This document shows positions 32,801-35,800 of a stretch of 64,000 bases of DNA, in pieces (position 1 is the stretch's first letter; the number at the start of each line of letters is the position of its first letter). This DNA comes from an uncultured candidate division Zixibacteria bacterium. Lineage in GTDB: Bacteria > Zixibacteria > MSB-5A5 > RBG-16-43-9. The stretch spans positions 288,001 to 352,000 of the forward strand of contig OY970208.1 of NCBI GenBank assembly GCA_963713865.1, given 5' to 3'. Position numbers: made by a program.

Positions 32801-35800
32801 TATCTTATAAATCCCGTCCACAAAGAACTTTCCTCTGATGGTCTGATTGGGTCTGATCCTCCAGAAAAGCTCGGAATCCTTTTTGTAATACTTAGGGTAA
32901 TTGAGCTCTGGGTTCAAAAGAAAGGTTTTATCTGGATATATTTGAATATTTATCAGTCTGAAAAAAAGCTCCCCCAACAACAAAAACAAAATGACGCTTG
33001 AAAAAGAGAAAAGCAGGGTTTTGGAGAGTTTCGGTTTATCCATCAGAATTTAGAAAAGAGAATAAATGAAAGGGGCAATGACCGAGCTTTCCGCAAAGAT
33101 TATAAGCAATGAGAGGATGAGCAGGATGAAGATTATCGGTCCCAGCCAGTATCTTTTCCTGAACCGAATGAACTGCCAGAACTCCTTGAAGATCGAAAAA
33201 CGAGAGAAAAAACTCATATTATCTCCTTTATTGTCATTCTGACCCTGCCAAAGGCGGGGGAAGAATCTAATCTTTTTTAGTATCCAGATGCTTCGCTTCG
33301 CTCAGCATGACACCTCCCACCTTCGCTTGTCATTCTGAGCCCTACTGGCGAAGAATCTCTTCTTTTCTATTTGAGATTCTTCACTTCATTCAGAATAACA
33401 CCTCCCATCCCCTGTCATTCTGAGGGAGTTCCCTACAAGGGCGACCGAAGAATCTCAATAAATTCCTCATTTAAATCCTTCCATTCTGGATTAACTGATT
33501 CTATCAAGCTAATTTTCTTAATCCTCAACCATCCTTTAATCTGTTTCTCTCTGGTAATAGCACTTCTCACATCTTCTGTCATTTCATAATAGACTAATTT
33601 AGTGAGATTATATTTCTTGGTAAATCCCGCAATTAACTTATTCTTATGCTCATACATTCTGCGTTCTAAGTTATTAGTAACTCCTGTATATATAGTTCCT
33701 GAGTTATTAGTTAAGATATAAACATAATACTGTTTCATATTTTTTCAATGAAATTTTCAGATACTTCGCTTTGCTCAGTATGACACCTCCCACCTTCGCT
33801 TGTCATTCTGAGCCCTACTGGCGAAGAATCTCTTCTTTTTTATTATCAGATGCTTCGCTTAGCATGACAACACTCAATCATTTAATCCTGAGCAAACAAC
33901 TTCTCATACGAGAACTCCTCCTTAAGAGGAGGCATCTCCTCTTTATCTAATACGAAATTACCCATAATAAGGTAGTCCATCCCGGAGCGCCTAAAGGAAA
34001 GATAAGCCTCTTCTGGAGTACAGACGATCGGCTCACCTCTTAAATTAAAAGAGGTATTCAAAAGGGCTGGATACCCGGTCAGGTTATAAAATTCTGCGAG
34101 CAGGTCATAAAAAAGCTGGTTCTCCTCTCTTTTCACGGTCTGTAATCTAGCTGAGCCGTCTACATGAGTTACTGCTGGAATCTCTTTACTCTTCACCTGA
34201 AAAGTCAGAAGCATAAAGGGGGAAGGTCTATCTATTTCAAAAAAATCCTTTGCTTTCTCCCAGATAATACTGGGCGCAAATGGCCTGAAACCTTCACGAT
34301 ATTTTACCTTTTGATTCACTCTATCCTTGTTCTCTGCCTTTCGAGGATCAGCTAAAATGCTCCGGTTACCTAAAGCTCTGGGACCAAATTCCATCCTGCC
34401 CTGAAACCAGCCCAGGATATTCTGTTCTGAAAGAAGTTTAGCAGCAAATTTAAGTAGTTCAGCCCGATTATATTCCTTATAAGTTATCCCCTCACAAATT
34501 AAAAAATCTTTTATCTGATCTTGTGAAAATCCCGGACCCAAATAGGCATCTTTCCATACAAAACCCCTCTGATTATTTAGAAGGGTGTAATAGATATAAG
34601 CTGCTACTCCCACTGCACCACCGGCATCGCTTGAACCAGGCTGAATAAAAAGCTCCTCCATAGGAGTCTCTTTTAAAATCCTTGAATTAGCCAAGCAGTT
34701 TAAGGCAACACCGCCGGCTAAGCATAAATTTTTCAAACCGGTTTCTTTATATAAATTGTTCGTCATCTTTAAAACAATCTCTTCAGTTACTTTCTGCAAA
34801 CTCGCAGCCATATCTTTATGCAGTTTTTTAATCTCAGTCTCAGGTTTTCTGGGAGCTGAACCGAAAAGTTTATCAAACCGGCCATTGGTCATCTTCAAAC
34901 CATAATCATAGGAGAAGTATCTCATATTCAGCTTGAAACTGCCATCTTCTTCTAAATCAACCAGCTCTTTCATTATAAGATCATAATGGACTGGCTCACC
35001 ATAGGGAGCCAATCCCATCACTTTATATTCTGCACTGTTCACCTTAAAACCTAAATAATAGGTGAAAGCACTGTATAAAAGCCCCAAGGAATGCGGGAAC
35101 CTCATCTCATATAAAAGCTCAATCTGATTATCTTTACCCATCCCGTATGCACCGGTCGACCACTCGCCCACTCCATCTATGGTAAGTATGCCTGCCTCTT
35201 TAAAGGGGGAGACCAAAAAACTTGACCCCGCATGGGAGAGGTGGTGCTCGATCATCAATACTTCTCCCTTATAATCAAGCTCCTTACGAATCAGAGATGG
35301 TATCCAGAGCTTTTCTTTCAGCCACATAGGAGTTGCCATCAAGAACGAGACAAAAGATTTTGGAAAGGTAGCTAAGTGCGAAAATAAAATCCTTTCGAAT
35401 TTGATAAAAGGTTTCTCATAGAAACCTATATAGTCAAGCTCCTTGGCAGATATATTTTCAGTGGAAAGGCAATAATTGATCGCTCGTAGAGGAAAGTTGG
35501 AATCGTGTTTAAGCCGGGAAAACCGTTCCTCCTGAGCTGCAGCTACTATCCTGCCATCTTTGAGCAAGGCAGCCGCTGAATCGTGATAAAAAGCTGAGAT
35601 ACCTAAGATATACATTTAAAACTGCCTGCGAGCGTTTTCCAAATTAATTTCTATCTTCTCTTTTTTTATCCAGAAAGATTTTTTCTTGTCTTTCCATTTC
35701 TTATTTAAAAGGTCTTTTCCTAAAAACCTGAGGAAGATGGAGAAAAGCCCGAGTATAACAAAATAAAAAAGTGTCAGGATGATTATAGACTGGACATAAG

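Follow-up and report, generated by a model that had tools for sequence, protein, structure and literature searches.

A single-domain GIY-YIG nuclease gene enclosed by interrupted hairpin repeats in an uncultured Zixibacteriota genome: a very probable Ssn-SRM system with a divergent repeat

Introduction

Why does a small nuclease gene sit in the midst of a palindromic repeat family that is scattered through the genome of an uncultured member of the Zixibacteriota? A genome-wide survey's note had linked the palindromes to this GIY-YIG gene in the manner of RAYT genes and their repeats. The pairing itself stood, on the enclosure of the gene by the repeats, on the recurrence of this layout at related loci and on the homology of the protein to SsnA, but the idea is not new: the NTS-ssnA-NTS layout, including the comparison with RAYT/REP, had already been described by Chenal et al. 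(2025, Nat Commun 16:2388; PMC11893778). Here we analysed the window, that is, the whole 64-kb stretch of DNA around the gene, along which positions are given, together with the rest of the genome and related loci from many phyla. We find that the locus is very likely an Ssn-SRM system, consisting of a single-domain Ssn-family GIY-YIG nuclease and its cognate hairpin repeats. The system is of a known kind, and the shape of its repeats differs from the published pattern.

Results

A nuclease gene inside a two-armed repeat

Using ORF, PF01541, half-unit and arm searches, we found both the palindrome family and the GIY-YIG gene embedded in it to be real, as had been claimed (Table 1). The repeating unit is a half-element, which consists of a TGTC tag, a 5-nt box, GA, a GC-rich hairpin, GA and the complementary box, and two inverted halves form one cloverleaf-folding element. 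The gene is itself enclosed by two inverted halves, i.e. it lies inside a two-armed element. The half 3' of the gene reads TGTC-ATTCT-GA-GG-GA-hairpin-GA-CC-GA-AGAAT-CTC; its sense lies on the plus strand, so that the tag is directed away from the gene, and the final 23 nt of the gene overlap this half. The half 5' of the gene reads TGTC-ATACT-GA-GCAAAGC-GA-AGTAT-CTG and ends 19 nt before the ATG. Next to this cassette, the gene-less hybrid that begins at 33232 has the same half kinds as those flanking the gene, and the stretch 33285-33371 recurs at 33758-33844 as a direct repeat of 95% identity. Enclosures of the form '+half ... -half' that span 120-4000 nt occurred three times in the genome, and the one around the GIY-YIG gene alone was tight (307 nt), with 2-3.8 kb of unrelated genes in the other two. 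Among the seven other small GIY-YIG frames of the genome, six lie within 16-719 nt of a tRNA gene (three of them in tandem), and the seventh, 4.2 kb from a tRNA gene, carries an in-frame TAG and is surrounded by tRNA-like remnants.

Table 1. Features of the repeat-nuclease locus and further repeat copies in the window
Feature	Position	Strand	Evidence
ssn-like gene, single-domain GIY-YIG nuclease, 101 aa	33436..33738	-	ORF; PF01541 E 7.5e-17
Half-unit 3' of gene, 'long' type	33413..33458	+	sequence; half-unit list; orthologues arranged alike
Half-unit 5' of gene, 'short' type, box ATACT	33758..33785	-	sequence; half-unit list
Gene-less two-armed hybrid, ATTCT half + ATGCT half	33232..33312	.	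arm search; DNA fold z -2.66
Two-armed ATTCT-type element, right arm degenerate	33328..33400	.	arm search; fold z -4.72, cloverleaf
Two-armed hybrid element (ATTCT + ATGCT)	33801..33869	.	arm search
Further two-armed copy	62938..63012	.	arm search; DNA fold z -8.11
Further copy, nested in TGTTGAAAAA...TTTTTCAACA inverted repeat	63282..63368	.	arm search; DNA fold z -5.54

The motif TGTCATTCTGAG, allowing at most one mismatch, occurred 10 times in the window compared to 0.21 expected, with 6 of the 10 occurrences at 33232-33812. Across the genome we counted 65 two-armed elements (arms with at most 2 mismatches, 30-150 nt apart), slightly fewer than the 67 reported before, and 157 half-units with a perfect pair of box and complement; the 275 arms given by the survey's note, a figure that varies with the definition of an arm, were not reproduced. 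Exact arms numbered 61 for ATTCT and 41 for ATTGC, against 0 and 1 for reversed-pattern controls. The strict pairs comprised 30 ATTCT, 9 ATTGC and 6 hybrid elements, in disagreement with the previous subfamily sizes of 36 and 27 copies. The half-units are intergenic, dispersed over the genome and mostly arranged as inverted pairs.

Within each half, the box and its complement co-vary, as seen in 6/6 clean hybrid elements, with no match across halves. All main boxes (ATTCT, ATTGC, ATGCT, ATGTT and ATACT) begin with AT directly after TGTC. The stems are interrupted by one tandem G-A/A-G step or two and in most cases enclose a GC-rich hairpin, the tail reads CT(C), and the interiors measure 6-53 nt. 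A stem of at least 3 bp directly inward from GA...GA was present in 53/156 halves (a fraction of 0.057 in shuffles), a limited share because many halves have an extra GG-GA layer. An Rfam scan of 32000-35000 with E up to 1 returned nothing beyond a chance lncRNA match. Several unrelated palindromic repeat families likewise crowd the intergenic DNA of this genome.

In single-stranded DNA folds, 42 of the 45 strict elements had an outer stem of 10 bp or longer and 28 of the 45 had three hairpins, at a median z of -6.75 (range -1.6 to -12.6) relative to mononucleotide shuffles, in line with the cloverleaf that had been proposed. Isolated halves folded no better than shuffles (z of +0.34 and -0.34) and thus receive no thermodynamic support, so that the case for the half-hairpin rests on co-variation and on the analogy to the NTS.

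The protein is a homologue of SsnA

In BLASTP, the window protein showed 45/88 identities (51%, E 5e-30) to a 94-aa ORF of N. gonorrhoeae, which we used as a stand-in for the N. meningitidis protein and around which 12 NTS copies lie, at up to 600 nt on each side. The gonococcal ORF is a member of the Ssn family, whose enzymes are site-specific endonucleases of single-stranded DNA (PMC11893778). PF01541 spans residues 3-73, with no second domain above the cut-off, and orthologues are 94-97 aa long, compared to 101 aa here. In the alignment with the gonococcal ORF, Y7, Y17 and E64 of the window protein stand opposite Y6, Y17 and E64; across 17 orthologues, Y7 and E64 do not vary and Y17 hardly does. 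In SsnA, mutation of the catalytic tyrosines Y6 and Y17 and of the metal-binding E64 abolished cleavage (PMC11893778). The closest solved structures by sequence were 1zg2 (BH0048; E 1.2e-6) and 1ywl (E 0.0034), from the UPF0213/YhbQ/YazA/Slx1 branch of GIY-YIG nucleases. At another locus (L087), whose protein is 66% identical to that of the window, an NTS with one mismatch lies 45 nt upstream. Biochemistry in PMC11893778 established that SsnA binds the flanking hairpin repeat and cuts beside it, in single-stranded DNA only, that Neisseria SsnA and three homologues bind the hairpin unit only when the strand reads TGTC-box, and that the nick falls a few nucleotides 5' of the tag.

Resident gene or mobile element

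The layout of the cassette resembles that of an insertion sequence, and one may ask whether half-gene-half, at about 370 bp, constitutes a mini-transposon that is both active and autonomous and whose nuclease mobilises the gene-less two-armed derivatives as an IS moves its MITEs, or as IS200/IS605 elements move by single-stranded hairpin ends. Consistent with such movement, four gene-less ATTCT/ATGCT pairs carry the half kinds of the cassette, two of them adjoining the gene; related genes with 54-84% identity are spread over very many phyla, in a protein tree that departs from phylum order (31 label changes compared to a minimum of 14); and the elements at orthologous intergenic sites differ between this genome (G000) and its relative G001. 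However, the gene has one copy per clade in each genome, and it lies between the carbamoyltransferase and DUF5989-GDSL genes in four genomes (G000, G001, G007 and G008, of one family and two genera). The 45 flank pairs showed neither a target-site duplication nor a conserved flank, and none of six G000-G001 alignments contained a clean empty site; the intergenic DNA is a mosaic of other repeats, with wholesale replacement by other repeat families. The orientation of asymmetric elements was unbiased by replichore (10 vs 11; 4 vs 3), and 144/156 half-unit interiors were distinct, which argues against a recent burst from a single master copy. GIY-YIG chemistry is established as hydrolysis of DNA, and we know of no joining activity in these enzymes. 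With all of this taken together, we consider the mini-transposon unlikely. A conventional insertion sequence with MITE derivatives would have several gene copies, target-site duplications and clean empty sites, whereas here there is one gene copy, and these flank pairs and alignments showed neither of the other two.

Upon comparing orthologous sites, for which the G001 comparison covered 1,162,321 of about 2.7 million bases, we found that, of the A-type clusters viewed from G000, 7 were shared, 10 were absent and 1 had another type in its place; viewed from G001, 6 were shared and 9 were absent. In total, A-type clusters (gene present) were shared at 13 sites and absent at 19, and orphan B-type clusters were shared at 13 and absent at 5. 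This is a weak trend towards faster turnover of the A-type, in which each shared site enters once from either genome and some clusters, being defined by exact 10-mers, may be due to chance.

Even less probable is an origin as a homing endonuclease whose gene invaded the central loop of an older palindrome, with the repeats being targets and not products. The gene does lie exactly between both central-stem strands of an element, GIY-YIG domains are frequent in homing endonucleases, and the sole NCBIfam match of the protein is a weak one to TIGR01453 (E 0.0003, below cut-off). Yet only one of dozens of possible target elements is occupied, the protein has no separate DNA-binding domain, and the characterised homologue cuts single-stranded DNA only, beside the repeat and not at the centre of the dimer (PMC11893778). 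We favour the reading of the locus as an Ssn nuclease with its own recognition repeats.

Gene and repeat type go together across phyla

Among 17 intact orthologues in relatives, halves flanked 10 on both sides and 15 on one side or both. Across 76 related loci from many phyla, correctly oriented halves lay within 150 nt upstream at 42, downstream at 50, on both sides at 32 and on either side at 60 loci, relative to a background of 0.017 per equivalent stretch and strand. The upstream box equalled the downstream box at 19/37 loci compared to 8.5 expected. Box type follows protein clade across phyla: mapped onto the tree of 84 proteins, the ATTGC box required 3 changes (shuffled mean 16.2, minimum 12), and all boxes together required 26 (shuffled 39.5, minimum 33). 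Furthermore, the commonest box of the genome was the box beside the gene in this genome and in G041, G043 (an unpublished genome), G045, G046, G050 and G052, including the rare ATTTC box, which dominates G041, the one genome with this box beside its gene; in G042 and G049, the gene-side box ranked second.

The number of arms fits the presence of the gene only loosely. Out of 14 combinations of genome and type with at least 40 exact arms, 10 had a cognate gene, and the four that had none were ATTGC in this genome, ATTGC in G002 and G013, and ATTCT in G006 (91 arms); many arm-rich, gene-less genomes are fragmented bins, from which a repeat-flanked gene is easily lost. The clean split that had been described, with 62-79 arms accompanying an intact gene and 1-19 arms a missing one, did not hold, as no clade-A gene was found in G006 and the gene was present with 10-15 arms in G024, G027 and G030. 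Overall, the pairing of gene and palindromes is supported as real, and as closer than the survey's note had stated. The least credible reading, and one already disfavoured, takes the repeats as independent of the gene (terminators, RNA stabilisers or host-factor sites, with the gene in a repeat-rich intergenic hotspot), for which the other palindromic families and the strong folding of the two-armed elements speak, and against which stand the flanking layout at 60/76 loci, the tracking of protein clade by box type and the ATTTC-dominated genome.

The published motif misses these repeats

The published degenerate SRM motif matched none of the 157 halves in the genome; its genome-wide matches numbered 4, compared to 4-6 in three shuffles, and it occurred in the flanks of 2/76 related loci, where the half-unit definition recovers 60 of the same 76, spread over many phyla. 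That motif was derived from 29 genomes of 4 phyla, and a table of the same paper lists Chloroflexus aggregans as having a homologue without SRM enrichment (30 found vs 33 expected; PMC11893778). The motif overlooks a whole class of interrupted-stem units, so that it would score genomes such as the present one as 'homologue present, no repeats'. When the unit is defined by its tag and co-varying box, the association reappears for the majority of the nearest relatives.

Discussion

Relative to the 2025 paper, whose supplementary tables may already include some of these phyla, our analysis adds a half-unit that the published motif misses, the tracking of protein clade by box type, and an ATTGC subfamily that has no cognate gene in this genome. 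As the locus is very probably an Ssn-SRM system, we suggest a mechanism by analogy to SsnA, in which a nick would fall just outside one element end on each strand, both in two-armed elements and in the gene cassette, and in which the nuclease would act on DNA wherever it becomes single-stranded, e.g. during replication, repair or uptake. The repeats may originate and turn over via such single-strand nicking events, and the gene would by now be resident and vertically inherited (domesticated) rather than hopping.

A bolder and more doubtful idea, which we offer tentatively, is that the GA-type half-unit represents the recognition element of a large, unrecognised Ssn branch present in many phyla, with the 5-nt box as a specificity code that co-evolves with the protein. 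In that case, the flanks of a gene could reveal the cleavage specificity of its product, orphan families with matched boxes, like ATTGC here, would be either relics of a lost paralogue or substrates cut across types, and it could be the half-gene-half cassette that passes from phylum to phylum. In practice, defining the repeat by its tag and co-varying box provides a readable candidate code for enzymes that are under development as single-stranded DNA tools.

Among known systems, small URI/GIY-YIG domains also occur in UPF0213, YhbQ, YazA and Slx1, whose similarity to the window protein is far below that of the Neisseria Ssn homologue. To our knowledge, that branch has no repeat association, and our literature search on UPF0213/COG2827/YhbQ found no link to repeats. 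Searches for papers tying GIY-YIG to RAYT, REPIN, repetitive extragenic palindromes or miniature inverted-repeats found nothing relevant, and the arm sequences used as text gave, among the matches listed, apparently unrelated methods or primer papers. IS200/IS605 elements share subterminal hairpins recognised in single-stranded DNA (PMC11893778) and, as seen here, produce no target duplication; the present system differs in its catalytic fold and has neither multiple gene copies nor a replichore strand bias. Likewise, REP/REPIN-RAYT systems combine a single-copy, vertically inherited gene with flanking hairpin units that are scattered through the genome and form inverted doublets, and several gene/repeat pairs can share one genome, whereas here the tag is TGTC instead of GTAG and the enzyme is a hydrolytic GIY-YIG nuclease instead of a tyrosine HUH enzyme.

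Closer still are the CGTC-tagged REPs of several phyla, including Neisseria dRS3 and Rickettsia RPE-4/6, for which Di Nocera et al. (2013; PMC3733652) describe an unpaired 5' tag (CGTC, or TGTC/CCTC), a stem opening with A-T and T-A, and frequent inverted dimers with spacers that have complementary ends. Those repeats have a plain stem of 8-9 bp, a loop of 4-5 nt and a CCA-like tail, in contrast to the interrupted stems and the dedicated flanked gene found here. The closest likeness is to Ssn/NTS/SRM itself (PMC11893778), which shares the single-domain GIY-YIG protein of about 94 aa, the repeat-gene-repeat layout with many copies per genome, the tagged hairpin of (C/T)GTC followed by an AT-starting stem with a short form of about 28 nt, and the pairing of different homologues with different repeat variants. 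Compared to that description, the repeats of this locus have G-A/A-G steps, a nested GC-rich hairpin and a CT(C) tail, lie beyond the reach of the SRM motif, and mostly form inverted pairs that fold as a cloverleaf, in a host of the phylum Zixibacteriota. The question of which partner acts on the CGTC/TGTC-tagged palindromes was asked in 2013 (PMC3733652) and answered in 2025 by the Ssn family (PMC11893778), an answer that this locus confirms in a distant, uncultured phylum.

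A palindrome family encloses an Ssn-like nuclease gene

The genome under study (G000), a single contig of 2.72 Mb with 40% G+C, carries a real family of two-armed palindromes, as the genome-wide survey's note had claimed: the window has 10 copies of the arm TGTCATTCTGAG (up to one mismatch) versus 0.21 expected, a loose arm definition yields 65 two-armed elements across the genome, and exact arms number 61 for the gene-linked ATTCT and 41 for the orphan ATTGC subfamily versus 0 and 1 for reversed controls. A full element consists of two inverted halves with their tags facing outward. 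The short half reads TGTC, a 5-nt box, GA, a GC-rich hairpin, GA, the box complement and CT(C); the long half adds a layer, GA-GG-GA ... GA-CC-GA. Genome-wide, 157 halves have a perfect box pair (ATTCT 102, ATTGC 43, ATGCT 5, ATACT 4, ATGTT 3), and half-unit interiors are highly diverse (144/156 distinct).

The claimed folding was likewise confirmed: folded as single strands, the 45 strict elements gave the outer stem in 42 cases and three hairpins in 28 (median z -6.75), and tool folds gave z of -4.7, -8.1, -5.5 and -2.7 against dinucleotide shuffles. For the two halves beside the gene, folding did not surpass that of shuffles (z +0.34 and -0.34), which counts against a stable half-hairpin. 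In all six clean hybrid elements, picked by their arms alone, the box matched its complement inside each half and the halves mismatched each other; the box co-varies inside a half, not just between arms. About 10 of the 45 elements are nested in a second inverted repeat, TGTTGAAAAA(n)...(n)TTTTTCAACA, which is either part of a larger composite element or a preferred insertion site.

The gene is indeed embedded among the palindromes, bounded by inverted halves in the sole tight plus-half-then-minus-half arrangement in G000 (gap 307 nt); two other such enclosures span 2 and 3.8 kb and hold unrelated genes with unlike boxes. Because 33285-33371 and 33758-33844 form a 95% direct repeat, the hybrid palindromes next to the gene resemble cassette ends copied without the gene. 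Four genomes conserve the neighboring DUF5989 gene together with adjacent GDSL-type lipase and carbamoyltransferase genes.

Positions of the locus and of related features (strand in brackets)
Feature	Window	Genome	Remark
DUF5989 protein, 55 aa	33050-33217 (-)		E 3e-21
Gene-less two-armed palindrome	33232-33312		leftmost in span 33232-33869
Gene-less two-armed palindrome	33328-33400		second from left
Half-unit	33413-33458		third from left
GIY-YIG gene, 101 aa	33436-33738 (-)
Second half-unit	33758-33785		inverted relative to 33413-33458
Third two-armed palindrome	33801-33869		right end of span
Element in second inverted repeat	63282-63368	351282
Elements in second inverted repeat		652156, 681352, 891041, 980903
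Further elements in second inverted repeat		1773441, 1895437, 2396961, 2710515
Other small GIY-YIG genes	42690-43789	330690-331789
Other small GIY-YIG genes		2133391-2133728, 1312542-1312833, 2706452-2706756, 2702288-2702497
Mosaic intergenic stretches		1642930-1643200, 1704110-1704300, 1773300-1773900	matching stretches in relative G001

The embedded gene also proved, as proposed, to be the one intact small GIY-YIG gene without a tRNA link. The genome has nine GIY-YIG matches, one of them a 614-aa frame; six of the seven other small frames have a tRNA gene at a distance of 16-719 nt, and the remaining one is broken and has tRNA-like remnants on its flanks. The other small genes tabulated above each lie 16-52 nt downstream of a tRNA gene (for Met, Gly, Ala or Ser) and have a partial or altered copy of the same tRNA behind them. 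By tRNA-Met, three tandem 344-bp units each comprise a gene and a tRNA-like copy, with GC-rich hairpins in place of parts of the D and anticodon arms; ARAGORN calls none of these copies as tRNAs. In relatives, tRNA-linked paralogues (loci L018-L025) are flanked by box-GAG...CGA-complement units, e.g., ATCCTGAG...GAAGGAT. The term "tRNA" is absent from the main text of the Ssn paper discussed below (PMC11893778).

Association and box type across relatives

Among 40 related genomes, which are kin and include many fragmented bins, 24 have a match at E <= 1e-10. One orthologue group (72-94% identical to the window protein) has ATGCT, ATACT or ATTCT halves upstream and ATTCT downstream; a second (54-67%) has ATTGC halves on both sides. 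Both groups occur in G007, G008, G017 and G019, whereas G000 and G001 have the first only, yet contain 41 and 25 exact ATTGC arms. Gene neighbors are the same in G000, G001, G007 and G008. Among 17 intact orthologues in relatives, 15 are flanked by a half on at least one side and 10 on both. The sharp split of arm numbers by gene presence did not hold: the two fit only loosely. Of the 14 genome-by-type combinations that reach 40 exact arms, 10 include the cognate gene, and G006 has 91 ATTCT arms although no cognate gene was found there. In the six class-level genomes that lack the gene, arms number 0-1.

Scanning one genome per species gave at least 592 relatives, and the best 80 (54-84% identity) belong to Zixibacteriota, Chloroflexota, Acidobacteriota, Cyanobacteriota, Planctomycetota, Ignavibacteriota, Bacillota and others. 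Among the 76 of these 80 loci with at least 150 nt on both sides (4 were dropped), a correctly oriented half lay within 150 nt upstream in 42, downstream in 50, on both sides in 32 and on either in 60, versus a background of 0.017 per equal stretch and strand; the downstream half frequently overlaps the reading-frame end by 23 nt. Box labels cluster on the protein tree: on a tree of 84 proteins, with a short alignment and weak support, all boxes required 26 changes versus a shuffled mean of 39.5 (minimum 33). ATTGC alone required 3 versus 16.2, its clustering being judged by the shuffled minimum of 12, and ATTGC genes from six phyla form one group. In genomes chosen for clear flanks at their loci (four further ones are left out of this listing), the box beside the gene is the commonest arm box in G000, G041 (the rare ATTTC), G045, G046, G050, G052 and the unpublished G043, without which the point also holds, and the second commonest in G042 and G049. 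G041, a Dehalococcoidia chromosome with locus L085, has, on contig 1 at 151061-151440 and 475785-477455, tandem arrays of ATTTC-box arms (spacing ~92 nt) and a dense arm cluster around the Ssn-like gene.

A proposed nicking mechanism

Beyond layout, copy numbers, co-variation, homology and synteny, all directly observed, characterised homologues suggest that the folded unit would be bound strand-specifically in single-stranded DNA and nicked just 5' of the tag. Given that the tags point outward, the predicted nick on each strand of an element or cassette falls just beyond one end, and spread and turnover of units may depend on such events. Turnover is real, with many elements differing at orthologous intergenic sites between G000 and G001. 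As this comparison yielded no clean empty site, no target duplication or strand bias was found for the elements, and the gene-linked and orphan subfamilies differ between the two genomes by no more than a weak trend, mobilisation stays a proposal. Intergenic DNA is a mosaic of further short palindromic families, e.g., TTTCGTAGTGCGACCC...GGGTCGC, GGACAGGACAGTGTCCTGTCCCTAC and GAGACGCATGC...GCGTCTC, which differ wholesale between G000 and G001; the flanking genes are ~85-92% identical.

Comparison with published systems

Linking the palindromes to the GIY-YIG gene was a sound interpretation, but systems of this kind have already been published (Chenal et al. 2025, PMC11893778). As described there, SsnA of Neisseria meningitidis, a single-domain GIY-YIG protein of 94 aa (CDD family cd10448), binds one strand of the dRS3-containing hairpin repeat NTS, only if the DNA is single-stranded, and cuts a few nucleotides upstream of the repeat; three homologues cut next to their own repeats, and the NTS-ssnA-NTS layout was compared with IS200/IS605 and RAYT/REP. 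A 94-aa N. gonorrhoeae ORF that has 12 NTS copies within 600 nt to either side shares 51% identity with the window protein (45/88, E 5e-30), in which tyrosine, tyrosine and glutamate align to SsnA Y6, Y17 and E64. The protein at locus L087 shares 66% identity with the window protein, and an NTS (one mismatch) lies 45 nt upstream. Two N. gonorrhoeae records (NZ_CP119140.1, NZ_CP119142.1; ~2.17 Mb) are filed as plasmids and look like chromosomes by size.

The half-units match, in tag and AT-start, the "CGTC-tagged REPs" of Di Nocera et al. (2013, PMC3733652), who concluded that these have no dedicated transposase. The published search motif, SRM, matched 0 of the 157 halves, occurred at 4 places in G000 versus 4-6 in shuffles, and lay in the flanks of just 2 of the 76 cross-phylum loci; hence, the published definition misses a class of repeats with interrupted stems carried by the gene's nearest relatives. 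A term search of 10 supplementary files of PMC11893778 returned neither GAGCGAAGCGA nor TCTGAG nor the word Zixibacter, and the per-genome table there gives Chloroflexus aggregans, which has a homologue, 30 SRMs versus 33 expected. Overall, the G000 locus is a structurally divergent variant, from an uncultured phylum, of a published kind of system, from which a usable, wider repeat definition and a candidate specificity code can be derived.
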